Positions 1-49,940 are shown, counted from the stretch's first letter. The stretch: DNA of 64,000 bases from Trichoplax sp. H2 (GCA_003344405.1 NOWV01000147.1:62001-126000), one strand, 5' to 3'. Notes: generated by a model from the sequence alone, not told the origin. Numbers and translations: made by a program.

Positions 1-3000
1 AGTCGCACCTTTCTGCATATTATTATCGTCTTCTGGACCTCTATCATCGTCTTCTGGACTTCTTTCATCATCTCCGGGACCATCCTCTCCTTCTTCTTCT
101 TCATCTTCCTCATCACCATTACCTTCATCGTCTCTACCGTCTGCTTCATTTCTTTCTTCGTCGTTTTGATCATTAGGATTTCCACTCTCTCCACGCGGCT
201 CAAATAGGTGGTACCCGTTTTCTACAGAAATCCCTTTTCCGTCATCCAATCGTATATTTTCATCGCTCTCTGGATCCATCGAATCTTTTTCAGGAACTTC
301 TGGACGTTCCTTACGATAAACATAGCTATCAGCGTAATCATTAACATGCTCAGGTGGCATATCTTGATCAAAAAGTTTCATTGTTTTCTTATAATTATTT
401 CTCGTCTCCTCTTTGGTTATGATGCCATCCCCATTGGTATCCATTTTTTGTTTAATCTTATTTTAAAAGTAATAATTAGCGATAATTTTAGGTAAAACTG
501 TTCAAGTTTACAAAATATCGCTGTAATAGTTACTTGCTTCCATTCGCTAGTCTTTATTATTTAGATAAAATGCATATAAGCGATTATGATTCATTTTATC
601 TTGTTACGTAATATTACGAATACCTCATTAGCTATCCTTTCAGAACCACCTAATGTTCCCTAGAGTTGAAAATGATCAAACAATTAATTGTCTTAGAATA
701 GAACAAGAGTTCGCATGAAGTTGCATCTTACCACGTAGGCTTCTGTGAATTTCTTGCCATCAAATATGCCTGATTTACCTATGGCTTTCTTAAATATCGG
801 TCTTGAAAACAGCAATTAAACAATTTAGAAGATAAATATTAGATTCTATATAGCACAACTTTATACCGTCATATTTATGTGCTGTAATCACTGTGCGAAA
901 AAACAATATCAGACTAACTGTATATGTTGCTAAGCTATAATTATCCAGTTATATGATAATAAAGAGTAATGTAGCTAAATTGTTCGAGCTTTTATATCAA
1001 CTTGTAATACTTTGACACAATCATCAGCATTATAAGCTTTAATTCAGCACATTTAAGAAACAAAGACACATTACAGTCGATCCCTTAAATTTTTGTAAGA
1101 TTACAGAATATTACTCGAATTTAATTGTATGGAATGGTGCCTAAGAAGATGCCTGATTAAATGCATCTAGAGGTAGTCTATCATAATTTCATCATGAAAC
1201 CAATATTTCATACGAATACTACTGTAAAAGTGAAGTAGTTCACTATGAATTAGATATTATGTCAGAAAATTTAAAAATTTAATTCTAATTATTCTAGGTG
1301 CTAGAATTTTTGAACGTGAAATATCTAATAGAAATGCACACGAATGTTAGATAATTTTCTTTTCAGTACAAATATTTAATCTAATTTATCGAATTTTATT
1401 CGATAGCTTGTACGTAATGTTTATTGAAAGATTTCTATAACTGTAACTTACGAGACTTCACTTCGTGTAAATTGACGATATTCATATTGCAAAGTATTTG
1501 CTGGATCCATTTCATTGAATATAATCATATTTTTCCATGACTGCATAGGTAAAGCCTTGATATCATCAACTGATATGGTTTCCTTATCATCAGTTATTTG
1601 CAAGCTATCTTTGTACTAAAGATAAAATATAGAATCAAATTATTGCTTTGGGCTTGCCCAAGTAGATTCAGTACAGAAAATTCATTCTTAAAATTTCAAG
1701 CATGAACATTTATTTTCTTTCTGCTCTTAGTTACAACGTACTATTTTATATCCTTTTTGATACTTCTCTCCTTCAAATTCACCAAGATAATCCTTTAAAG
1801 TAGAAGATATATTAAATATAGGCAAGATAACATCAAGATTATTTATGACTATCATACGCTTTCAACTAATATGATGAGATTAATTCAAATATGTAGTAAG
1901 CTATAATGCAGAAAATAGTTGCATACCCTGACAACATGCTTCAGTAGTTTTTTTGCGGGTAGAATCGACTTCTTTGCTTTTTTAAAAATATGTAGGAAGC
2001 TATCCCTATTGGCGAATATTTAAATTGCCTTAGTAGGTGAGCAATAGTTATAACGATATATCTACATAAAATTGAACATCTGAAAATAAACCAAGGAACT
2101 ATCCTTTAAAAATGATAACGATATTATCATATATTAAAATTACAGTAACGTATTTGAATAAGTATTTCAAGTTTATATCTAAACCAAAGTTGATATGAAC
2201 TAGTTCTTAGAGATTAATAAAAATATAACCTATAATGCTTAGGTTCATGTAGACCCATCGTTAACGAACCAATACCATCAAAATCCCAAGCAACTTCTAC
2301 ATCTGTCAAATTTTTATACGTTGCATTTTCACAACTTTTGCTATCAAATTTTTTTGTATGTGTTGTTCGGCGAGAGAATAGATATGAGATGGCCATATTT
2401 TTGTCGCCAAAGGATCGCACATGATGTAAAGTACCTAATATTATCATAAGGCAATGTCGAATTAGATTGCTTGTATTACAATTATGATCGAACACTTTTC
2501 AATATATAGCATTAAAATCCAAACCCATAAATTTTACTTTCTCTGAGGTCAACATATACTCATGTTTATAATTATACATATAGTAGTCTTAATCATTCTG
2601 GAACATGGCTCGTACTTAATTACGATCTAATATCAATTTAATATACATAGCTGTTTATAGTCTATTTATGCAATTGGTGGAAACTCGAGTATACATATTA
2701 CATATTGGATCATCGCCTCATTTCAATCTGTAAAGCAATTTCAAAAGCATAAGCTCACCGTAAGGAACATAGAGACAATCGCCGGCAGAGACATTAGCAT
2801 ACCAATACGGACAATCTTTAAATTTGGAGAACTGGATTAAATCAACTTTATCTACTTTTAAAACAGAATAACCGCCACCATCCATTGCTGGTTCTCTTGC
2901 TAAAGGTACCATATGTTCATATTTGGGGCTAATGAGTAACCAGTTTTTGGTTCCATTTAATACACAATTAAGAATATTTGCTATTTATTGAAGAGAAATA

Positions 3001-3771
3001 ACTTGATATCAAAATGTAGCATTACTTGAGGATATCTTGACTTCAAAATGATTATTAATGGTGATTAGAAAATGTTATTCTACTATTCAATAATCTGCAA
3101 GATTAGAGATGGAACTAAATTTCTACTCTAATATTGGCTTGTAGAATTGAATAGGTAAAGATACATTAAAAACATAATGATGTGGACGCCATCTTTTGAA
3201 AAGTAATATCGCAATAGTACGTACGAGCATCCTTGTGTAACAAACTTTTAGTTCCTCCATTACTCATCCAGTAATTGATTTCAACTAAGGAATCCTCAAA
3301 AATACCACAGGATAAGCAAGGTGGAACAAGAATATCGCGATACATTGGTTTAGGCAATTGGGAAACGACATATTTATTTTCTTCGACATAAGTCGTTAGA
3401 AAATTCTTGATGGTGTCACGACCTAAACCTAAATCACCAGCGGGAATACCCTGAGCTTCTTTTTTTTTCTCTAATTTTACGCTATACTTCCCGTATACAT
3501 CTTTTAAGTATTCATCCGTCCATAAAGTTTTAGCTGGAAAATTTTGAGCTGCCCCTTTAAGTAGAACTGGTCGTCTTTTACTAACATATTTAGACCAAAA
3601 TTCTTCAGCTGGATATGGCTCATTCATGATATCTACATGGCCGTCAGAATCACGATGTAAACCTATCTCTTGTAAATGACCCCTTGGAACTTTGCTCGAT
3701 TCTTTTCCATCGATTTTGGCTAAAGAAGCGAATAATAGGCACAAGAAAGTAATTCCTTGCATCCACTTCAT
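1..3771 (-). CDS. JmjC/cupin 2OG-Fe(II) oxygenase + EF-hand secretory-pathway protein, paralog A (3' end runs off window)
   Basis: Manually spliced GT-AG exons 3771-3225, 2980-2759, 2434-2230, 2005-1927, 1792-1742, 1615-1452, 801-732, 659-624, 456-<1 (610 open codons, no stop in window). Signal peptide MKWMQGITFLCLLFASLAKIDG. JmjC motifs LLHKDAPNILNCVLNGTKNW, AGDCLYVPYGTLHHVRS. EF-hand loop DTNGDGIITKEE. D/E-rich tail. Confidence 0.88.
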
Positions 3772-6507: not shown

Positions 6508-9500
6508 TTACAATTCATCGCGAGAAGATTTCTTTTCATTCATTTCATCATTAATGCTTCCACTATCAGTTTGTTCAGGTATCCCTTGGTTTCCGATTTC
6601 AGCAGACTCTTTCTTTAATTCCGTCTCCTCTGATCTTAGAGGATCTTCACCATCCGATATATCACTTTCATTGCTATCTATTTCGTCAACTTTACCATCC
6701 GGATTAGCAAACAAACCTAGAACTTCATCCAACTTACTTAGTCTTTCCTCTTTACTAACTTTTCCGTTTCCGTTAGTATCAAATTTTCTCATAATCTATA
6801 GAAAGAAATTAATTATCATGTTCCATTCTTGCCCTCATTTTCTGTTAATGTACTGTAAATTCTTATATATTAAAGATCTAAAGTACTTTATATATTAAAG
6901 CTATTACTACTGTAGTACGTAGTTATCTAAATTTAAACCTTTTAAATCAGTCATTACCTCGTTTGCTGATTGCTCAGACCCTGATAGTAATTTCTAAAAT
7001 ATGGAATAAACCAGAGTATATTAAATTACCATGGCAATAATGAGAATTTGTCCCAATTTCGTGCTTGCATTGCGGAATTATATTGTCTATAATAGTAAAT
7101 TAATAAATTATTGGATGGTTGTACCTCATAGAAAACGGCAAATTTTCTAGTATTAATTCCTCCAGCTTTATCAATGGTTTTCTCGATTATCGATCTGGAA
7201 ATAGTTATAAAGATTGTGTAAGTATATAACGACAGTAGCAAACTTCTACGGCTAGAAAACCATAATCCAAGACGTATTGTATGCAATTAGAGAATGATTT
7301 TAGGCCAAATGTAGCTCCATAAAATATATTGTATTATCTTTTAGTCACAAGATTATTCATAATTTAGCATTAAATGGTTGATCGCGAAAATATGTACCCC
7401 TAAACTTGATAAGACTTGACTTACCGTATATCTTTCTTTGTATAGATGCGATATTCATATTTTAAAGGATTTTCCGGATCTAAATCAAAGTAGTATATTA
7501 AATTTATCCAAGATTGCAGAGGGAGGTCAGCGATCTCATCAGTAGTGACAACGTTTTTATTCTCTATCTGGAGATTTTTTCGTATCTATGTAGAAGCAAG
7601 TTTTAATTAGTAGCCACATCTATCAATAAAACGTTGCTTACAAATCAGATTAGAGACTAAAATCTTTAGTATCGGCTGGCTTTACTTACTAATTTTATCA
7701 CTTTGTTTATGTGATCAGAGCCTCGATCAGGAATGGTACGCTTAAATAAGTACAGTATAAAATTTAGTTCAATAAGGCTATAAGAATCAAACACCGTCAC
7801 CATGATCAATACCTATGGAAAAACGCTAGAAGTACAATTTTGTATCTTGATTTCTGAAATAACAGGTTTCTTTTAAAAAAAATGATATGCTACCTTGAGT
7901 CTCCTTAAAAGCACATCAGTCCTTATTTTTTTCTTGCCTTTAAATGCTTGAAATGCAGCTTCTCTATTTCAAGTGAAGAAAATAATTAATAAATTGAACA
8001 AAATTGGCCAAACTACTACTGCTATCAATTCCAATCTTAACATTTCACTTTTTCGTAGAAATTAAAATCTCAAACGTAAGGTTTCAAGAATTTAAAATCT
8101 GTCAAAAGAATCGTGATTAATGTGTAATATTAGATTTTCATGATGATGAAATTCACAGCGATGGCTTACTCAAAGTATAAAGTTATAGATACACAAATTT
8201 AAAATTTAGTATGTAACAATTTGGTATGTAACTTAAAATATTGAATCTCTAGAATCATTAACTAAAAAATTGTAATAAAGTCCAGCAGTAACATTGCTTA
8301 ACAAAATTTCTTCCAAGCTTGACGGCACAGAATTAAACTTGTAAAAACCTGTATAAATTAGGATCTTGCAAATCAACAACTGGGGTTGTATGGCTATTAA
8401 TTTGCCAATCAAACATGGGGTCCCGAATATTTTTATATTTCGACGTTTGACAATCCTGGTTGTTAAACTTTTTCAAATGCGATACGCTTTGAGAAAATAA
8501 AAGCGAAACACGCATATTTTTAACACCATCTGTTCTTACTTGATACAAAGAATCTGAAAGGTAAAATTAATAAGAATTACCAAAAAACAACTATCATAAC
8601 CTAAGTAGCTAATATTCAGGCCTTAAATTCTCTTATTAAGTTTCTTCAATATGTTTATGCAATTACAATTGACGGATTTGGACCTAAATAATAGGCAACT
8701 AAAGCGAATATATGCTTTGCTGCACTTTCTCCTACTTAGTGTAAACCATATAATTCATTTCTTTTGCCTTAAGGTGACTATAGTAATCGGAAAACTTACC
8801 GTGAGGAAGATAGATGCAGTCTCCTTTAGCTAAAGTAGCATTATAGTATGGGCAATTTGAAAATGCTGAAAATTTCTGTAAGTCCACTTCATTAACTTGT
8901 AAGGCAGAACGTGTACTTCCATCTTTGGCTATCTCTTCTACCATGGGTACAAGATGTGCGTGTTGATTATCGATTAATATCCAATCACTCGTTCCATTCA
9001 ATAAGCAATTGATCGTATTAGCTATTGGCATTAAAAAGAATTTGTGTCAAGGCAGAAACGGAGTCATTATTATTATAAATGGATTGCTATAAATAATACA
9101 TGTATAGTATGTAGTGGTAGTTAAGATTATTAGTACCAAGCATTTTATCTCAATTATTCTATTTGCAGTTAATACGTATAACTTTTTATCTAACAGAACG
9201 CTATTAAGTAGTAATACAGTCATTTTACAACATAGCTACCAATATTATAGAAGCAGTAGCTCTTATTACTGATATATACGGTAGGATAATGATCAAAGCT
9301 GTAACTTTAGTAGTCTCTTTGGTAAAGCCCTTCATATCTGCAGTTTTTTTATTTTTGCATAAAACCCGTTAAAGACTTCGCAGTGTTAAGGAATAACTCG
9401 TATAAGACTTCTAATCCTAATAGATAGTATCTTGGGTGTGAAGCACGTAAGATGGATGCCTAATAAAGAGCTAAAGATTATGATGATTTCAGTTAATTAC

Positions 9501-11310
9501 AGGAGTGATGTGTTAGGGGATAAGAACCCATACACTGCAAAGATCTATCCGATAGCAGTACTCCTACTTCTGCTCATTAATTGTGCAACGGGTAAGCGTT
9601 CATAACTATGAACATTTATCTTCCTTGTCTCCTGTCTACGTGTATTCTAACGCCCTTTAACCCGAATTTATGGCCAAACTGTTACAAATTTCACTTAAAT
9701 CGGGAATTACAACATACGAAGCCAAGTGCATATAAGCATTGACTAAGAACTTTGCGTGACATATTTACCTTAATTTTTGAGTTCATGAAGGATGCTGGTT
9801 CTTATATTTATAGTGCAGATATTACCAAACCCAAGCTCAATCAGAAGGAATCGTAGGATACATTAAAATGCTACAGATGACCGTCAATGTGGGTCAGTAT
9901 GCTCGCATTATTATTGCAATTTGAAATGTCTTAGACTAATTTACTATTGCTCGTATAACTCATCAATATAGTACGAGACAAAGGGGAGATGAAACACTTT
10001 ATTTCAACAACTATAATATTGACCAACCTATTCTATTTGCCGATTTGTGATTGATAGGAACAGTAAAATGGACATATCTTATCAAGACCATCTCATTACA
10101 ACTTGTTAAAGTACCGTAATCATCTGCAATCTTATGGCTTCAATACTGTTTATATATCTAATGGTGGAATTGATTTAAGAAGTTACTATTGATCAACTGC
10201 TATTCCCGTGCTCTAAGATTCTATCGAGAGTTAAAGCGTTGCACATCGCTAGCGTACGCCAAGAATACTTCGAGTACGGAATAGATTTATGTCATACGAA
10301 ATTTACTGTATACCCTCAATAGGATTATCAGGCAAATCTTGTAAAATCTTGACGAATAACATATGGAATCTTTCGATCATAACAGAAATCTATTCCAATA
10401 TTTCATCATGCCAATGATCAACATTAATATAATAAAAACGTTATAAGGCATCTGGGTTATATGTTGGAACATCAATTTTGATTCTTCTAAATGCTGTTTG
10501 ATGAAGTAAAGAAAGAGCTTACACTACATAACGTCATTTCGGTCTGCAATATTAGAGCGAGTGCGGTGCTTATTAGAGCTATTAATCGACTATAATATCT
10601 TACCATGCTAACATCATTAAATAATAGTATACGAGATAATATTTACAAAATCATAATAAATTTTCAAGTGCCCATTTCAGCAGTTACATACGCATTGATA
10701 TGAGGAAATTGATGTATCTAACAAAGTCAGCTTTCACTAGTGAAGCTGATGAATATGCTCTTAACTTACAAGCATCTTTCCGTAGCGAACTTTTACTGTT
10801 ACCGGTGTTAAGCCAAACATGTACATCAATCATAGCAGTTGTAAATGAGCCACATGAAAGGAAAGGTGGAATTAGCACATCGCGTTGCATGGGTTGAGGC
10901 AATTGAGAATCGATGCATTTGCTTTCATTGACATAAGTTGATATAAAATCATTCAAGGATTGGCGTTCTAGATGCCCTTGGTCATTAGAGATTTCTTCCT
11001 TTTCATTGATTTTAGCAGAATAAATCCAATAATTTCCATAAAAATTTCTTAAATAATCATCAGTCCATGAGTCTATCGCTGGAAAATCTAATGCCGCTTG
11101 CTTTAGTAAGACTGGTCGCCTTTGACTAACATACTTGCTCCAGAATTCTTCGGCAGAAATCGGTTCATTGAGTACATCAATATGCCCTTCAGCAGCACGA
11201 TGTTGTCCTAATGGTTTAAGATGGCCTTTAGGTAACTTATAATTGTCATCCGCATTGCCCTGATTGACCAAGATAGCAACTAAAAATAACACAGTAATTT
11301 TATAAGTCAT
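6508..11310 (-). CDS. JmjC + EF-hand ER-resident protein (RDEL), paralog B; predicted catalytically inactive
   Basis: Exons 11310-10770, 9021-8800, 8553-8349, 7963-7894, 7740-7690, 7585-7425, 7194-7125, 6993-6958, 6795-6508 (547 aa). Signal peptide MTYKITVLFLVAILVNQGNA. Motif equivalents SLRKDASNTINCLLNGTSDW and PHDSLYQVR. EF-hand DTNGNGKVSKEE. Ends SSRDEL-stop. Confidence 0.88.
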
Positions 11311-11426: not shown

Positions 11427-13429
11427 AGGGAAAACCCGCATAACAATGATGAATTCGTTCTTTCATAATATTCTATTCTATTAGACTAAGCCAACTAATG
11501 TATAAGCTTGACAAAATACGTTTAAATCAATAATTGCCTAAACAAACAATAGCCTGGTAGCCATCGCTGTCAATAAAATTGGCGTAGGTTGTGAAATATT
11601 TAAAATTAATTTGTCAAATTTACTACTTATGAATACATATAAACTGTAGCCTAGGAAAGAGGCAAATAGATCTATTCCCTTAGCATTCTGATCGGTGCCT
11701 TTATCCTACACAGAAAAAGTGAATAATGAAGTGATAAGTACAAGTTATATAGCTACGATGATAGTGAAGAATAACTTAGAGTAACGATTATGGTCTATCT
11801 AGTCAAGTGTAATAACAAAGGCCTTCTGATTTATTCACTACTTCGGTCATTAGGGTTGACTACAGACTAATTTAATAAAATACAGACGTAATCATTTTCA
11901 CTAAAATATTACTATCTTGCTATAATATTATCGTTGTGTAGCGAGTATTAATGAACAACTTATGATTATATTTTGCCTTACAAAATCAGTTTAAAGCTAA
12001 ACTGTTCATTTGCTCTTCGATAATGTTGGCATTTGCAGATCTCAAGTATAATTGCACCAAATAGTAGGAAGTAATTGCATATAAATGTAATTATCAGTTT
12101 CAGTACTATTTCCATCGTCTACTATGTTAAAATTATATGATTCTTAAGGTATATATTATGATAGTAAAGTTATCTTTATTAGTAGCAGGCGCAAACGAAG
12201 GAAATCAATGAACGTAAAGGACCTAATATGCTGCAGTATCGATTCTAATAATTTCTTCAGACTGATTTATTATTGTCAGGTTTCACGTCCTAGAAATCCG
12301 TAATACTTCATGGAGAAAGTATGAAATAGGCGCCTAAGCTATTGCCCTACATCAAATTTCGGAGTTGGATTTATTAAATTTTCACCTTAGTAACAACTAT
12401 CGTCCTCACTAATTAAAATAAATGGTTACAAGCTTAACTATCGATAGGCGCTTATAGACATATTTTACTTAGGGTTATTGTAAAGGGCTTATTAAACATT
12501 CTTCGTCATTGCCAGATACATTATAGGAAGTTTTGAATGGTGGATTATCAATTTAATTGATACAGCAGTGCTCAATTTATCTGATTCAAGCATTCCCAAA
12601 CGCTTACTAAGAAATTACTTCGACATTTCAACAATTTCCATTATATACACAGTTACATAACAGCTAAACGGCTATATCTCGCTTAATTAAGCCAGCTATC
12701 TATATTATAAAGGACCTGCATGTCTATCATTGATATCAGCTGTTCAAAATTATATCTACAATATAAGCATTACTTTTGAGCTGTGGTGGAAATATAAAGT
12801 TAATTTCTTTATTGAAGAGCATGAAAATACAAAGTACCACGATAATTTGTTACATCAACTGCATTAGTGAAGTACAATACTAGTAGGGAAAATATGGATT
12901 GTAAACCTTATTTATGAAGGTTGTTGTGAAGCATGGGAGATAGATATGATATACCATAAAAGTCAAGTTGTAATATAGTTTTGCCAACTGGGAGGGAATC
13001 ATGGAATAATTTTAAACTTGGGGTATTTTACGACAATTAAATAATGCGCTATAGATTCAATGGTATTATCGTTAACCAGCTAATTTCTATGATTAGCATG
13101 CATAACTTAAATAAATTCATTCCATAATGAAGCTAATACAATTCTCTAACGCTCAGAATCCCTGTAGAAGCAATTATGTTTATCATTTCTATTCCATGTT
13201 AATAAATACATAGTTATAATCCAAGTAATTAGGGTAAAGCATCATTCAGCAATGCTATCATAACAAAAAAGTTTACTGAGCAGAAGATACCGTAGTAACA
13301 TCTACAAACTTACACAAATTGGCAATATGTCACTAAACCTGGACTACGTGTAGAAAAAATTTTAAAGTATTGCTACCTTGATAATGTATAATCGCCATAA
13401 TTGGCTAGAAATTGTTACTACAGCACCCA

Positions 13430-16400
13430 TTACAATTCATCACGAGAATCTCGGTTGGGATATTCGTCGGCGTCTTCGTCTTCATCTGGCATCTGCATTT
13501 CTTCCTCCTCTTCATCGCCATTTCCTTCATCCTTATTTTCTCCCTTAGTTGCAAGTTCTTTTCGGCTCGTAAAAAGTGGATCTTCTCCATCCTCGAACTG
13601 AGTATAACCTTCTTTCACACGAATTCCTTCACCTTCCCCTTTTCGGTAAAAATCATACTTTTTTTCCGCATCACCATCATAGTAGATTTCCATTGGATCA
13701 ACCTTTGGCACCTGTTCCCTTTGATCGCGATACACAAAAACATCTGCATAGTCGTTAACGTGTTCAGGTGGCATATCATCTTCAAATAAGTTTAATACAC
13801 GTTTCATGTTCTTTTTTCGTTCCTTTTTGCTGATTTTGCCATCTTTATCGTTGTCAAACTCTTGTATAACCTATATAATCATCATCAATAAATTGTTTAA
13901 AGGTTGGTTATTATTATTTTCATTTTATGAATTACGCGTGTGTTATAGTCGTCAAAATCGAACAAGATAAAACTTTTATTAGCTCGCGTTCTATATGATA
14001 TTCTAACTAATATATACAAGAGAAATACTAGAAATGCGCTGACCTCAATAGCTACTCGTTCCGATCCACCCAGGTTACGCTAGATAAAAAATATTTTATA
14101 GCCGTTCAAGCCAAGCATTAAATAGAAGCTCTAAACCTAATTCGATAGCTTAAATATTATGTGTAACGCATTCAAAGCTTAATAATATTTGCATATATAA
14201 AAATTTACCCTATAATATTCTTTAAATTGTTCACAGTCAATGCCACCCTTTTCATCTTTTACTTCACGAAAGACCTCCCTATAGATCGTCAAAATGCGAT
14301 AATAACATATAAGATTAGGTTTGAAAGCAAGCAATTTTTACGCAGAAGTTCCAGATATAATAATCAACATAATTAAAATTATTGTATAGCGCAATTTATT
14401 ATTGCCGTTCTACCGATGATGATCACGCACAATTTTAACAAATCAAGTATCCAATACAATTAACAAAGCTATGGTATCCTTTTAAAATGGATATAGGGAA
14501 CAATCCTGCAAACTTTTTAATTGATATATTGTAAATAGGGTACAATTATTGATACCTCATTTGATCTTTAGTAAACAAGCGATACTCATATTGTAGTGTG
14601 TTAACAGGATCCAATTCTGATATGAAAATTATCGGTTTAAACGCATCCATAGGTAAAGCCGATATTTCGTCCACGGTGATAAATTTTTTATTTTTCAATT
14701 TAAAGTTTTCAATAGCCTATATTAGAAAACACCTATTTCTTACTCTCTACGGTGTATATGCAATATGAAATATCAAGCATAGATTTCAATAGATTCAAGA
14801 TAGACTGGATAATTAATATAAATTGCATTCAGTAATTTTTGTTGCAACAATAATATAATCCATGGTAAGATAGAAATTCCTGTAAAGTGCTTACTTTCTT
14901 TCTTGCTTCACGTCTTTTTTGTGGATCTTCCGGAAGTATAGTCTAAAACGAATCATTTTAGGTGATTATTGAGCTAGATATTCCTGATTTGTCATAAATA
15001 TATTGCCAATGAAGTAAGCCTTGATATAGATAAGTGCCTTATTCCAATTATCGTTGCAGTACTTTTTAGCTAAACTATTCGTAAGATCAGCTGATGACGT
15101 AGGAAGATAGCATGATTGCATAAAAAATGAAAATATTTTCATACTGCTCTGTAGTTTTTGGTAATCTACTTAATGTCATCTTATAAAATTGTTGTAGAAC
15201 GTCGTTAATAAAGCAGAAATTGATAACGGTTAATTCTATGATTCTTTATATTCTACCGAACATTATTTTCGTAAAATTGTAATAGAATGTTCTTAGTAAC
15301 GTGATGGCTAATGATATTTTAGCATTATTACAACATATACTTTCAGTATTTTTAGTGCGCTACGCCATGATACGCGATCTTTATTAAATTACACTAAACA
15401 TATCTGAAGCTATTGTGCTCCAAAATATAATTCTCTAGTATTATATCAACATCTAGAGTTTCTGAATAATTCATATATCATTTTCTTCCTCTACAGTATC
15501 GCTTATAGCGGATACTGGATATTATATCAATTCAACATCTATACTAAGTGTAGCAATACCTGTCCTATCCTTTTCATGAAGAGTTTAGTAGTTATATTCT
15601 TCTTTCCTCGGAATGCGCGTAATGCTGCTCTCCTATATGTTTATTATTAAGATTAGTGAACACCTAAGCATAAATTTTCAACTGTATCGTGAAAATTAGT
15701 GTCGCTGAAAAGTAGTAGTGGGCAGTATAAGCCTTCTTTCTTTAACTGACAGAGTAAATATTCGATTGATTAAAATGTTGTTAATACATTATTCTCATTA
15801 AACTTTGTGTCATATAACTTATAAGAGTTGTTCTCATATTTGCTGACAGTTAGAGCCGATCACAGATCAACTACAGTATGTCGTCAATTTTTGTTTTAAG
15901 AGCATACCTGTATACTGCTGGTTCTTGTAATCCCATCGTCAGTGTCGTGGCCCCATCAAAATCCCAAGCAACTGTTGAATCCGCTAAATTTTTAGGTCCT
16001 TGTTTCTCACAACCGGCGTCATTAAACTCCTTAGTATGCGATAAACTGCGAGAAAACAAAAAGGACACGGCCATGTTTTTTTCGCCGTATGATCGGACAT
16101 GATGTAATGTACCTAAAGAGACGATGACGAGTTAATCAATTAACTTTTCTTAGTTATAGACGCTATGGTCGTTCGCAAAAATAAAGTTTATCCATTAAGA
16201 CATTAGTTGTTAATATCTTACTTTGCTCTATTTATTATTATATAAAGACATTATTAAGAGAAAATTGGTAGTCGATATTAGATCTTTGAAATTATTTTTT
16301 CGGTTAAATGTTGTTGAATGATGCAACTTACCATAAGGGACGTATAAGCAATCTCCTGCTGATACGTTAGCAATATGATATGGGCAATCGCGGAATTTTG

Positions 16401-18277
16401 AGAACTGGATTAAATCGACCTTGGTTACTTTAAGTACAGAATAACCTCCACCATCCATAGATGGCTCTTTTGCCAATGGTACCATATATTCATGCTCAGG
16501 TCTAATCAAAATCCAATCTTTCGTCCCATTGAGTACACAATTGAGGATATTGGCTATCGAAAATTGAATAATTACATGAACTTAAGATTAATGCGTATTA
16601 TTTGCGATTAAAGCTATATTAAAACTACAGCAACAAGGCCTTATAATTCAACGTGCTTAATGAAATGCTCACGGGGCGACGAAAGAGTACGTTCAAGTCA
16701 CGAGAATTGCAACAGTTAGTCAAAATGAAATAAAATCTACATGGTATACTACATCTGGCAGAGTCTTAGAGATTCGATGACAAAATCAGGGCTTCTGGTT
16801 CATTTGATGATCAGATAAATTTGAAGATTTACGAACTTGTACATATATCATCCTTAATATTAGCGAGATTCATATGGAAGCAATGACAAACTAAATTGAT
16901 CAAAGAATATCTCCAGTTATTCATCCAGAAAGGCTTCGAACCAATGGTCTTTCTAGCGTAACAGTAAATTAAGTCTAATTTAAAATAATGCTATCGGTTC
17001 CACGTATTTTATAATTTTCTTTTTGAGTCTGAAGTTCATATTTTTGTAATCTAATTGAACACATTAGCAAACAAGGATTACTATTTCAGTAATCGTGTTT
17101 ATAACACTTTCTAACCGTTGATGCTTTTATTAATAAGAAAAGTTTTTCTCTCATTTATTAAATCAATCATGATCGTCAAATGAATGTTTAAGCGATCCAC
17201 CCATCTCTAACGTAAAGTCAATATTAGTGAAGTAGTAAACAAGCATGTCTCCAAGCAGTCTTGCGTTTTCTTTCTGCCACCTTCTATCTTAGTAAATAGG
17301 AAATAGACTACGATAATTATGCTATACTAATTATCATAGAAAAATAATAAACTATTTCGCATCTAAGAGATAAGTTTAACAGTCCTTTGACAATCGATTG
17401 AAATAAAAAAATGACAATGCCAAGACGAGAGACTCTTAACCTTATACAACGTGATGGATATGAAATATGTACAGTTTACGTTTAAGTAATATTGATAATT
17501 GAATCTTAGTTAGGGCTCAAATGACGAGTCGTAATCGTTGCTCTTTAATTTTTGACTACACTAATCTCGTCATAATTAAAAATTAACTTTTATAGGCTAT
17601 ACAATGTGCATAGAAACACAAACTCAAGATTATGATTGCGATGTGAAAAGTATCCAAGTAACAGATCAGTAATTTGATCCTGCTAGTATGTCATTGCTTA
17701 GGAGTTTAATGCATTTCAAATTCTACTTACGCGCATCTTTGTGTAGTAAACTCCTGGTTCCACCACTACTCATCCAGTAATTTACTTCAACGATAGAATC
17801 ATTAAAATCACCGCATGCTAGACAAGGAGGAACTAAGACGTCGCCGTACATCGGTTTAGGGAGTTGAGAAACGATGTACTTATTCTCCTTAACGTAAGTT
17901 GAAACAAAATGTTTAAGAGAGTCGCGAGCTAAGCTAACATCACCGGCTGGATATTGATAACCTTCTCTTTTGCTCTCTAATCGAACATTTAAGTGGCCAT
18001 ACTTTTCCGATATGTACGAATCAGTCCATAAAGATTTGGCCGGGAAATCTTTAGCGGCTCCCTTTATAAGTACCGCTGTCCTTTTACTAACATACTTTCT
18101 CCAAAATTCTTCTGCTGATGGTATTTCTTGCAAAATATCAATATGACCTTCCGAATCGCGGTGTAGCCCTAAATCCTGCATATGACCACGAGGGACTTCT
18201 TGCTGACTCTCCTTTGCCAAAGATAAATTGGCGATTGCCAACAAAAATCCAATCAAAACGACGTAAAAACGATTCAT
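13430..18277 (-). CDS. JmjC + EF-hand ER-resident protein (RDEL), paralog C
   Basis: Exons 18277-17731, 16553-16332, 16112-15908, 15632-15560, 14942-14895, 14716-14556, 14278-14209, 14079-14044, 13870-13430 (600 aa). Signal peptide MNRFYVVLIGFLLAIANLSLA. LLHKDAPNILNCVLNGTKDW ... GTLHHVRS. EF-hand DNDKDGKISKKE. Acidic tail ending SRDEL-stop. Confidence 0.9.
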
Positions 18278-20479: not shown

Positions 20480-23400
20480 ATGGATGGCAATAACAAATAC
20501 TTTGTGTTGATACTGCTCCATTTGTCACTAGCTTCCACTCATACTCTGCGTGGTCATTTACAACCTCTCGGTTTTCAACGTGATACTGATGGCGATATAA
20601 CTACTCTTTCTATCTTACCAAGCAATGAAGAGTTTTATCAACTGTTGATAAACAAGGAGACTGCTTTACTTAAAAATGCTGCTAAGCGTAGTCCAGCTAT
20701 TGATCACTGGACAGAAAAATATTTAAAAGAAAAGTATGGCAATCTTACACTTAAACTGGAAGGGAAGAGTGAAGATCAGACAAGACCGGAAGGAAGCTTA
20801 GGCTTAGGATTTGATACTATTAGTAACTTCATTGACAGCTACCATGTCCAACCAAAGTATGCGGTTACACAATTACCTGATCCAATGCGTCATGAAATCT
20901 TCGTTATGCCATTTATGAGATGTGGACCCTTATCCACGAGTGTTATTGAAAGCCATTTATGGATGAGCTCAGGGCAAACCAACAGCAGATTACACCGAGA
21001 TAACAGTAAGACTACATTAGAAGTAAACCAGTATCCATGTCCATTTTGATAGCCAATTTTACTCAATATCGAATGAGATGCCAAGAAATAATGTCTATAA
21101 CAACATTTAAAGAAAAAATCTAAATAAAAACTTTCAATATAGATAGGCTCTTTATTGTATCTTAATGTTAATTTATAAATACTCGTCCAAAACATTTATA
21201 AAACGACTGAAATCATTCATTCCCTTACTCTTTTTAGCTTATACTCTTCATTGTTCAATTAAAGGCAGGAAAGATTGGATACTAATGGACTCTAAACATC
21301 TAGATAAAATGTACATTAATAATCAGGTGGACAATTTCTCAGGATCATCTTCTATCAACCCAGACCGTGTTAATTTACTACGATATCCTCGTATTGCTGA
21401 GATTCCATTTAAACAGGGAAATATTACTCCTGGTGATTGCATTCTGGTACCGCCAGGTACGAGAAAGATAGTCTCCATCAGTATGACGACACGATGAGTT
21501 AGTTGATTCGTCCTGTAGTAAATTTTTTTCTCACTGCTTATTTTCAGTTTCTAGACGCTTACTACTACACTTGTAAAGTACTCGAAAGCTATCCGAGACA
21601 TTGCTAATTATTTTTAATTAACTTGAGAATTATCCACTCTAGTCACTTTAAGGCGCGGTACAACTTACTATTTAATATAGTCAACACATCTTCTTTAAAT
21701 AAAGTAGGATCTGATTAATAGTTTAAAGAATGCACTTCCAACAATCGTTGTTAACTGATGTATAAAACTAAATGTGCATTCAGGTATGGTCTCAAGTAAT
21801 TTAACACAATTTTATCATTGACGACTAAACCGCCTGTACTATCCTTGTTTAATATGCATCATTGCAAACAATATTGGTAGTGATTGTAAAGTGCGTAATA
21901 CTGTAATTCTACTAATATGCGGTAGCTGATTTCTTCTAAGCTTAAAGTAATCTATTGCATATTTCAAAAGGTTGCGCCCATCAAGTTCGTTCTCATGGCC
22001 CAGTGAATGTTGCCTTTACGTTTTTATTTGAAATTACTGATGACAAACTGAAAAATTTCAATCCTATCCATTGCAGTCAAGACTATGTACCACTAAGTCA
22101 ATACCACCTAAGTTGGAGCTACTCAGGTAGTGGAATCCTTAGCATGGGGAATTCTGAATCCAACACATTTAGGTACGGTACTATGGATTCTTTAGAGTTA
22201 CCTTCTAGTGTGGTGTAGCAGTATTAATTAACTTACCTTTATATATCTTGATTTTCTTGATAATTTACTCTACAAGAAGCAGTTACTACAACAAGATTCT
22301 GCTGCAGTTTGCTGTTTAATTTTTAAAACCGTTTTTGGAATTGGTAGTCTGTCACTATTACTTAACTGTCCATTATCATATCATAACTTTATCCTAAGTA
22401 TTAATTAGTTACCGTTCAATTCATGGTTCATGAAGATACATCAGACTTGGACAATAAAGCTTGACGATATCATTTTATATGTAGGAAGGAAATACTAGAA
22501 CAATGGTTTGGAAAGCGTACTAAAATCCATTTTAATATAATTCAGGATACTTTTGAAGGGGTAATACTTGATTTGAAACTTACCGTTGATGTCTGTTACA
22601 GATTTTTGATCGAATTATTTTCTATATTAGCTACTGAAGTATTATCCTAAAGAAGCAACTAAAGTCACCACACTAGTGAAAGACATTGTAAGTTCCTGTC
22701 AGTTTGCATCAGTGTAAGAGCATAGCCTATAGCAGTGTTCATTAGATTATGAAATAATGAAAAAGTGTGACTTTCTCCCTGTAATTCGTTTTTGGGGCCA
22801 TCATCTATCCGCTCCTTGAAGCTAAAACAATATAATGCCATTAATTCGAATGAAATCGTGTCGAGAGAAAGATGTGAGTCTATTACAATAGAAGACTGGA
22901 GGAAATTCCAATTTATAATTGAATCAGCAACCAATATTCAAAACAATCCTGACTACGAGTACTATCTTACTAGCTACAGATTAGTTAGGTATTGCTTCAG
23001 AATGATCATACAGTTAACCAATATAAATGAGGAATTCATGCCAATAAAATAAATGATAATGCATTTTTTTACAGACAAGTAGCCGAAAAAGCAGTGGTCG
23101 AAACCTCTGGTTTATTTGACAAAATTAAGTTTAAGAACAGTTATAGGGTAAATCAAATTTGCGTCAAATCACTTTTAGTATCTTATATGTTGCGTGTGCA
23201 TATATGTATAATATACCGCAAGCCTCCAATCTGTAATTAATCTCATGCTGAAGGCATTCATTCGATTCATTCTTATAGGCTGCGGGTGGCTCGGGGGCAT
23301 TCGCAGATAAAGTAAGTCAATCAATCTAGCAGTAATTATGATTATAGTCGTATATCTTTACCAATAGTATATTATTTTTAAGTTTTATCATCAAAGTAGT

Positions 23401-48680: not shown

Positions 48681-49940
48681 GATCATCATCATGACCTACA
48701 GTAACTAATAACTAACTATACTAGAAGAAGACCTGGACTGAACACTCTTGGACGGACAAACATTTTAGGCCTCATCTCGTCCAACTATTATGCCAAAAAC
48801 ATCGTTATGGCAGTACTTTACTATGCAGGCGGTCGATTTTGAATTGGTTAATGTTTTCTAAATGAAGTCATATTGCATTGAATTTTACTCGTATTATCTG
48901 TTACAAGTTTCTGCTTGAAAACACTTCTATAAACTGTCCTTGACTGTCCTTGACGAAGACAAAAATACAGGATTTGACTAGAGTCCTTATGGGAGTCCTG
49001 GAAAAAGTTCATCGTGTGAACGTACCTTTATTATAGACTACCTTCCACGGACGTTTTTAAATATTGTAATAAAAGTAGATTTTTATCAGAAGTTTTCCTA
49101 GGTCTAGGTCTAACTTTATTATCATTAATGGGAATGATCAATCCATGTCTTCTTCTAGTAGTCCATGCTGATCCACGACTTCTTGATAAAATAATGTTCT
49201 CTTATAATTTACTATCGAGAAGTCCGTGTCATCATACCGTATACTATACACAGTACAGTATAGGAATCACATAGTGAAATGCGCAAGACTCGCTGNNNNN
49301 NNNNNNNNNNNNNNNGATCATCATCATGACCTACAGTAACTAATAACTATACTAGAAGAAGACCTGGACTGAACACTCTTGGACTGACAAACATTTTAGG
49401 CCTCATCTCGTCCAACTATTGTGCCAAAAACATCGTTATAGCAGTACTTTACTATGCAGGCGGTCGATTTTGAATTGGTTGATGTTTTCTAAATGAAGTC
49501 ATATTGCATTGAATTTTACTCGTATTATCTGTTACAAGTTTCTGCTTGAAAACACTTCTATAAGATCGTAGACGCCATTTCAATTAGTATCAGTGATTGC
49601 AAAACAGACATTATAGACTCCTTCCACGGACGTTTTTAAAATATTGTAATAAAAGTAGATTTTTATCAGAAGTTTTCCTAGGTCTAGGTCTAACTTTATT
49701 ATCATATAATAAACTTATACAGAAGAAGATATAGTCTGCCGCATTCCATTTGGCAAGAAAAGTCCGTCTACCCTAATGGGAATGATCAATCCATGTCTTC
49801 TAGTAGTCCATGCTGATCCACGACTTCTTGATAAAATAATGTTCTCTTATAATTTACTATCGAGAAGTCCGTGTCATCATACCGTATACTATGCACAGTA
49901 TAGTACAGGAATCACATAGTGAAATGCGCAAGACTCGCTG
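48681..49940. repeat. Near-identical direct duplication (48681-49295 and 49316-49940) flanking a 20-N gap
   Basis: Both copies begin GATCATCATCATGACCTACAG and end GCGCAAGACTCGCTG; N at 49296-49315; copies differ by SNPs and two block indels or replacements. Confidence 0.9.

Follow-up and report, generated by a model that had tools for sequence, protein, structure and literature searches.

Inactive proteins with a JmjC fold are already known. JARID2, for instance, has substitutions at the ligands of the metal and of 2-oxoglutarate (2OG), is under selection and acts by binding, together with PRC2. In the endoplasmic reticulum (ER), CRTAP, an inactive relative of a 2OG oxygenase of this compartment, is found beside active paralogs; its resemblance is to the N-terminal, non-catalytic part of P3H1, and a dead oxygenase domain is absent from it. 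Here we describe a further case, in a little-studied family: gene B, which occupies positions 6508 to 11310 of a 64,000-nucleotide stretch of DNA from Trichoplax sp. H2 (GCA_003344405.1, NOWV01000147.1:62001-126000; the whole stretch is called the window in what follows, and positions are counted from its first letter). B is best explained as a tandem duplicate, specific to placozoans, of an HRJD-family oxygenase of the JmjC (Cupin_8) type that is JMJD5-like and ER-targeted, and the conclusion that it is a maintained pseudoenzyme, not a decaying pseudogene, is well supported. JARID2 is an ancient nuclear protein of several domains, whereas B arose recently by tandem duplication within a secretory-pathway family and is restricted to one lineage; unlike CRTAP, B consists of a full-length dead catalytic domain.

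The closest solved relative of B by sequence is human JMJD5 (KDM8), with an E value of 4.6e-12 for B and of 1.1e-19 for an active homolog (P0003), and the same protein is the best match of B in the PDB, here taken as a proxy for the human proteome, by both sequence and fold. In JMJD5, His321, Asp323 and His400 are reported to be metal ligands and Tyr272 and Trp310 to be contacts of 2OG (PMC13226616), whereas Lys336 is described as the critical 2OG-binding lysine, whose replacement in K336E strongly lowers the activity (PMC5818494). B shares with JMJD5 (PDB 6F4N, 4GJY) the motif order Tyr ... Trp ... HxD ... Lys ... His, and JMJD5 has the closest fold. Unlike JMJD5, it carries Cys, Arg, Ser and Tyr at the positions of Tyr272, His321, Lys336 and His400, and has a hydrophobic leader, four family cysteines, a C-terminal helical part of about 200 residues with an EF-hand-like loop, and RDEL. 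JMJD5, for its part, is described as nuclear (PMC11295675) and has an N-terminal ARM-like region, according to the Pfam label.

The HRJD genes were described by Cao et al. (2019; PMC6390904) as JmjC-only genes with KDM8 as closest human paralog and 16 copies in Trichoplax adhaerens. In that account they occur in cnidarians, sponges, echinoderms, hemichordates and tunicates, were lost in vertebrates, arthropods and nematodes, and are treated as likely histone demethylases; variants of the cofactor site exist, one of which, from the leech H. robusta, is discussed (PMC6390904). The knock-down of planarian HRJDs is reported to impair regeneration (PMC6390904, PMC11077316), and ectopic HRJDs are described as cytoplasmic, not nuclear, and as acting non-cell-autonomously (PMC11295675). 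The profile of B and its family agrees with that of the HRJD genes in Cao et al. (2019). The named relatives of B, all uncharacterised proteins, come from Antedon (crinoid), Patiria (sea star), Oscarella (sponge), Sanderia (jellyfish), Nematostella (sea anemone), Ptychodera (acorn worm) and Ciona (sea squirt), phyla that agree with the HRJD distribution, and a protein atlas places B among Cupin_8 clusters of cnidarians and chordates, one of these clusters being commonest in Chordata. The membership of TRIADDRAFT_57500, the T. adhaerens counterpart of B, in the set of 16 HRJDs is unconfirmed; the accessions of P0002, P0022 and P0018 do not occur in the main text of PMC6390904. With respect to a typical HRJD, B differs in being without the cofactor site. 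The literature searched on JmjC pseudoenzymes, JmjC proteins of the ER or with an EF-hand, Trichoplax JmjC proteins or HRJDs contained no description of this dead site. The terms signal peptide and EF-hand are absent from PMC6390904, as are these two, endoplasmic reticulum and KDEL from PMC11295675 and PMC11077316.

A last system for comparison is mammalian JMJD8, which has been called the first protein of the JmjC type to be located in the ER lumen and which is reported to form dimers and oligomers and to bind ER folding factors (PMC5684140). Like JMJD8, B is JmjC-only, with a putative signal peptide and the ER lumen as predicted compartment; when the two are compared by description, the differences are that KDEL is absent from the text of the JMJD8 paper and that an EF-hand goes unmentioned in its passages (PMC5684140).

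The cofactor site of gene B

The gene model of B and the codons of its cofactor site, the latter placed by alignment, are as follows.

6508..11310, minus strand: paralog B gene from start to stop codon, 9 exons, 547 residues
11310-10770, 9021-8800, 8553-8349, 7963-7894, 7740-7690, 7585-7425, 7194-7125, 6993-6958 and 6795-6508, minus strand: the nine exons of B, spliced model with open frame
10915..10917, minus strand: Cys132 (TGC) in place of the family Tyr (JMJD5 Tyr272, 2OG contact)
10780..10782, minus strand: Arg177 (CGG) at the position of the first metal His (JMJD5 His321); Arg also in P0002, P0014 and P0157
10774..10776, minus strand: Asp179 (GAT), the sole residue of the facial triad that is kept (JMJD5 Asp323)
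8987..8989, minus strand: Ser192 (AGT) at the position of the 2OG-binding Lys (JMJD5 Lys336)
8543..8545, minus strand: Tyr258 (TAT) at the position of the second metal His (JMJD5 His400)

All eight introns are of the GT..AG type and the 547-residue open reading frame ends with RDEL, so that frame and splice junctions are intact, as a preliminary description of this DNA had stated. The spliced product is identical at every residue to P0155 (RDD39127.1, Trichoplax sp. H2, 547 residues); the gene is therefore already annotated, with the database label 'Lysine-specific demethylase 8'. Exon 1 shows 99% identity to TRIADDRAFT_57500 of T. adhaerens (P0002, 530 residues), and P0155 sits in the 90%-identity cluster of P0002.

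The preliminary description had reported the loss of three catalytic residues in B, and their codons were found exactly where it placed them (CGG at 10782-10780, AGT at 8989-8987, TAT at 8545-8543). To these we add a fourth loss, Cys132, at a position where Tyr accounts for 95% of the 108 rows other than B in an alignment of 110 full-length members of the family (alignment A1). The JMJD5 numbering corresponds to the chain index plus 181 in the HMMER alignments of B and P0003, and this offset puts Trp310, Tyr272, His321, Asp323, Lys336 and His400 on conserved columns of the family. As a consequence of the four substitutions, the HxD/E...H facial triad is incomplete in B, where R177-K-D179 and Y258 leave the Asp alone, and the Lys and Tyr that hold the C5-carboxylate of 2OG are replaced by S192 and C132. 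The three siblings of B in the window, A, C and D, keep all four residues, including the equivalent of Tyr272.

A HMMER scan with P0002 retrieved 998 relatives at E <= 1e-3, and the best 151 were aligned. Among these, His is found in the first-His column in 147 of the 151 rows, Lys in the Lys column in 141 of 151, and His in the second-His column in 131 of the 132 rows that have no gap there. The only row of the 151 that is without all three of these residues is P0002, which represents B. Given that the columns are nearly invariant and that B is unique among the 151, the losses cannot be regarded as due to chance.

The distribution of the substitutions over the protein points in the same direction. 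When a column of alignment A1 is called conserved if at least 80% of the 108 rows other than B agree, 36 columns qualify and B keeps 28 of them; its eight departures are Y132C, S168N, T172S, H177R, K192S, P232S, H258Y and S262T. Four of the five cofactor columns are lost, as compared to 4 of the 31 other columns (Fisher one-sided p=0.005). The four family cysteines are all kept (Cys153, Cys186, Cys249, Cys289), and Trp82, Trp166 and Gly190 are kept as well. Loss is thus concentrated on the cofactor columns, which indicates that the scaffold was preserved while the cofactor site was dismantled. Since both metal His, the 2OG Lys and the 2OG Tyr are gone, that is four of five cofactor residues, B would be devoid of canonical Fe(II)/2OG binding.

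Two other departures from the usual site were observed in the family. In P0040, a protein of 287 residues from a Logan contig, the first His is replaced by Arg and the Tyr272 equivalent by His, and the Lys is kept; this protein lies outside the clade of B and matches P0021, P0023 and P0026 best, at about 50%. Loss of a metal His may therefore have occurred more than once in the family. In addition, the middle position of the triad is His instead of Asp in 9 of the 151 rows (HxH...H; e.g. P0068, P0086, P0097 and P0108), most of which still end in xEL. Such rows possibly form a sub-group in which the metal is held by three His.

Predicted fold, compartment and sibling genes

The profile of Cupin_8 (PF13621) matches residues 54-274 of B with 88.3 bits, with respect to a cut-off of 27.4, and exons 1 and 2 are each above the threshold when taken alone. 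The AlphaFold2 model of B, calculated with alignment A1, has a mean predicted local distance difference test score (pLDDT) of 82.9 and a predicted template modelling score (pTM) of 0.76. It contains a confident beta-barrel at about residues 40-300 and a helical C-terminal part that extends to residue 481, followed by a disordered acidic tail. When this model was compared with the PDB by Foldseek, human JMJD5 was first (E 5.5e-16, template modelling score by target 0.81-0.86, root mean square deviation 2.5-3.0 A over about 248 columns), and the next matches were JMJD7, TYW5 and FIH. The modelled fold is a double-stranded beta-helix like that of the solved JmjC hydroxylases.

Three further features of B bear on the compartment in which the protein might reside.

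11251..11310, minus strand: putative signal peptide, residues 1-20 (MTYKITVLFLVAILVNQGNA), a hydrophobic N-terminus with a helix at residues 2-17 in the model
6745..6780, minus strand: EF-hand-like loop DTNGNGKVSKEE, residues 458-469, E of about 1e-4 with EF-hand profiles, below the Pfam cut-offs
6508..6522, minus strand: RDEL (6522-6511), a KDEL-type ER-retrieval signal, with the stop codon TAA (6510-6508)

The preliminary description had taken signal peptide, EF-hand and RDEL to be intact. This holds for RDEL. The loop DTNGNGKVSKEE matches the canonical 12-residue pattern D-x-[DNS]-x-[DNSG]-G-x-[ILV]-x3-E and the EF-hand_1 profile scores below threshold on it (21.9 bits, E 1.1e-4, cut-off 25.4), whereas the leader is deduced from hydrophobicity alone, namely from residues 4-14, which are hydrophobic and precede NQGNA and then DD. 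The same elements recur in the family. A crude proxy for N-terminal hydrophobicity was positive in 87 of the 110 rows of the alignment, an EF-hand-like loop was present in the C-terminal part of 57 of 110 rows as compared to 2 of 110 reversed controls, the C-terminus was xEL in 79 of 110 rows and [KRHN][DE]EL in 55 of 110, and four cysteines were nearly invariant. Leader, cysteines, EF-hand-like loop and xDEL together point to the ER lumen as the predicted compartment of B and of its family, whereas histone demethylation is what the HRJD papers discuss.

The window is AT-rich eukaryotic DNA with a G+C content of about 32%; a run of 20 N at 49296-49315 marks an assembly gap. A tblastn search with exon 1 of B as query identified four paralogous genes in it, with exon-1 matches at 3753-3226 (minus strand) for A, 11310-10771 (minus strand) for B, 18265-17732 (minus strand) for C and 20549-21001 (plus strand) for D. 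The models of the three siblings were built from the joints in RNA contigs.

2230..3771, minus strand: exons 1-3 of paralog A (3771-3225, 2980-2759, 2434-2230), with RNA joints of 2980 to 3225 and of 2432 to 2757
13430..18277, minus strand: paralog C, 9 exons, 600 residues, with 8 RNA joints in the runs X16 and X19
20480..22172, plus strand: exons 1-3 of paralog D (20480-21005, 21238-21456, 21971-22172), with RNA joints

The cofactor motifs are HKD, GTKNW and GTLHHV in A, HKD, GTKDW and GTLHHV in C, and HRD, GRKDW and GCAHQV in D; the three genes thus keep HxD...K...H, and the motifs read exactly as they had been given earlier. C has an EF-hand loop (DNDKDGKISKKE) and ends with RDEL. The T. 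adhaerens ortholog of D is P0022 (TRIADDRAFT_57502), of 498 residues, which ends with HDEL. Exons 4-9 of A were modelled only in part, and the search for exon 5 gave no result; the last exon seems to continue beyond the start of the window, where an open frame without a stop covers positions 1..462 on the minus strand, and for this reason the C-terminus of A, with any retrieval signal, is unreadable in the window.

A difference between annotations concerns exon 5 of B (7690-7740, 51 nucleotides, 17 residues, RTIPDRGSDHINKVIKL), which is present in the H2 model P0155 and missing from the T. adhaerens model P0002. The homologous exon of C has 48 nucleotides (14942-14895) and is supported by RNA joints; among the joints listed, none flanks exon 5 of B.

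Expression, constraint and age of gene B

A lack of transcription, which the preliminary description had named as a mark of decay, was not observed. Of the sequencing runs used, X16 is RNA on record and X19 is guessed to be RNA, these two coming from two studies and carrying two organism labels, whereas X1 and X6 are DNA. The contigs of X16 and X19 contain the spliced joints of introns 2 and 3 of B (8554 to 8802 and 7963 to 8349), and loose ends of X19 contigs at 9021 and 10766 fit the join of exons 1 and 2. None of the spliced joints of B was found in the DNA runs X1 and X6, and the intergenic bins at 11538-12204 have depth 0 in both RNA runs. An X16 RNA contig departs from the window at 7501, inside exon 6 of B, and its next 255 letters do not match; a chimeric contig, a structural variant or an alternative transcript could each account for this.

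Protein-level constraint was assessed from the polymorphism of the coding sequence. Among the variants listed, B has 4 nonsynonymous and 6 synonymous ones, a ratio that resembles that of the active paralog C (4:5); exons 1-3 of A have 0:4. The neutral expectation for the codons of B is 73-80% nonsynonymous, and the probability of 4 or fewer in 10 is 0.007-0.03.

Seven of the differences observed between alleles of B are close together in exon 2.

8801..8962, minus strand: allelic block in exon 2 of B, 7 differences in 162 nucleotides, from contig variants and their codon effects

Four of them are nonsynonymous (H201N, N224D, F231Y, N241D) and three synonymous, whereas elsewhere the difference is below 1%. 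At 8834-8893 both alleles have about half depth in the DNA runs (48/89.4 in X1, 17.2/40.9 in X6), under both organism labels, and P0002 of T. adhaerens carries the alternative allele. The block may be a shared polymorphism of old date, or it may be due to balancing selection or to gene conversion; as to conversion from a sibling, for which we found no consistent sign, the alternative residues match A or C inconsistently in an alignment judged by eye.

The age of the change from His to Arg was judged from two further sequences, P0014 and P0157, which are exon-1-sized gene calls on Logan and ENA contigs that run into the intron after ...LRKDA. Both contain strings peculiar to B, for example DSQLPQPMQRD. 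When a maximum-likelihood tree was calculated for 21 exon-1 regions, three rows with no recognisable motif having been left out beforehand, P0014 and P0157 formed a clade with B (support 100/100) that is nested in a placozoan clade of A, B and C (100/99), while the companion fragments P0017 and P0158 branch beside A and C. P0014 and P0157 have Arg at the first His and retain Tyr at the equivalent of Cys132. Since the Arg is common to P0014, P0157 and B, the change from His to Arg is older than their split; the Tyr that both keep places the change from Tyr to Cys later.

These data bear on the alternative of a pseudogene that is still transcribed, or of relaxed, near-neutral evolution of the gene, in which case the frame of B would be open by luck and its site losses would be the earliest visible marks of decay. 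Several observations speak for it and weigh against a maintained protein. The clade of B evolves fast, with a stem branch of 0.76, and B is 53% identical to P0014 and P0157, as compared to 78% for A and P0017; such a rate fits relaxed constraint too. The four nonsynonymous differences within 162 nucleotides of exon 2 and the recent loss of Tyr132, which suggests that erosion of the site continues, are in line with decay. The word depths of B, about 10-36, are below the 161-467 of A and C, though the RNA data are contigs that give no expression level, and word depth cannot rank genes. The count of 4:6 is a sample pooled over several haplotypes and not an estimate of the ratio of nonsynonymous to synonymous substitution rates; when two further amino-acid differences of P0002 are included, it becomes 6:6, with a probability of 0.02-0.08. 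The distant orthologs of B were recovered as exon 1 only: protein homology searches with P0002, in which the whole-length search gave 3 proteins and the shorter one 4, found no exon-2 or exon-3 fragments of them. Moreover, the loss of activity is deduced from residues, and ER residence, calcium binding and any partner of B from motifs.

On the other side, a frame of 547 codons is intact together with eight canonical introns. For a neutral frame of this length, at about 0.1 nucleotide substitutions per site (a rough conversion of the terminal branch of 0.29), the probability of remaining free of stops is about 1e-3 to 1e-4. The three lineages that share the Arg all have an open exon 1, the proportion of nonsynonymous variants among those listed is like that of C, the losses sit on cofactor columns and spare the cysteines, glycines and tryptophans, and the predicted fold is confident. 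We therefore regard decay as a very unlikely explanation. The spliced joints, the 4:6 variants and the Arg-bearing open exon 1 in two further lineages indicate that B is expressed and under purifying selection.

Residual catalysis and a proposed role

A second alternative is that B has remained an enzyme by means of a non-canonical site, in which Asp179 and the B-specific pair His254-Asp255 (LPHDSLYQV) would serve a different arrangement of metal or cofactor, or by catalysis that needs no cofactor, like the peptidase activity that has been claimed for JMJD5 and JMJD7. We know of no JmjC oxygenase that functions with Arg and Tyr at the positions of the two His. Asp179 is indeed kept, and so is the substrate-side scaffold, with the pocket residues Trp166 and Ser174; the pair found four residues before Tyr258 is His-Asp in B alone, as compared to Tyr-Gly in A and C and Pro-Gly in D. 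However, both metal His, the 2OG Lys and the 2OG Tyr are gone, and in JMJD5 the K336E change alone is reported to lower the activity strongly (PMC5818494). The hydrolytic activity of JMJD5 and JMJD7 has likewise been reported, yet as dependent on the same metal ligands (PMC5818494). His254, in addition, is separated from the triad position by several residues of the strand, and for this reason it would be geometrically doubtful as a replacement of the lost ligand. On balance, a surviving catalytic function appears highly improbable.

That the substitutions are assembly or sequencing artefacts of the window has negligible probability, and no supporting point was found: the independently assembled P0002 carries the same four residues, the X16 RNA contig over 10770-11291 differs from the window at 10837 only, and no variant falls on the three codons of the preliminary description among the variants listed; the substitutions reported there are thus real.

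We return to B as a maintained pseudoenzyme and to what it may do. The protein would be made, would enter the secretory pathway and would be retrieved to the ER by RDEL. It would fold like its siblings and be unable to hold Fe(II) or 2OG; the side chain of Arg177 may occupy the position of the metal and pair with Asp179. What selection still acts on would be the binding surface and the C-terminal EF-hand module, and B would work by binding rather than by catalysis. It could be a non-catalytic, possibly calcium-dependent binder of a client or partner that the active HRJD paralogs recognise, for which it might compete, or which it might hold or present. A calcium-sensitive binder of the client or partner of the active paralogs is, in our opinion, the most plausible role. 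Dead paralogs often regulate their active relatives. Of the two parts of the original proposal, then, the maintained non-catalytic protein stands, whereas a partner, chaperone or regulator of A, C and D in the manner of CRTAP and P3H1 stays an analogy.

A broader picture, which we consider rather unlikely as a whole, would see in the HRJD proteins an ER-luminal, calcium-linked system of protein hydroxylation and not chromatin demethylases; vertebrates, insects and nematodes would have lost this system, and in Trichoplax it would have grown to 16 genes. In such a system the placozoan B would be a dedicated dead member that binds the same luminal or secreted clients and leaves them unmodified, as a decoy, a holdase or a regulator of a pathway for which RNA interference in planarians has indicated a link with whole-body regeneration.

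B is modest in itself, and its value lies in the handle that it offers on the HRJD family: a natural dead paralog could be used like a substrate-trap mutant to find the targets of the enzymes.

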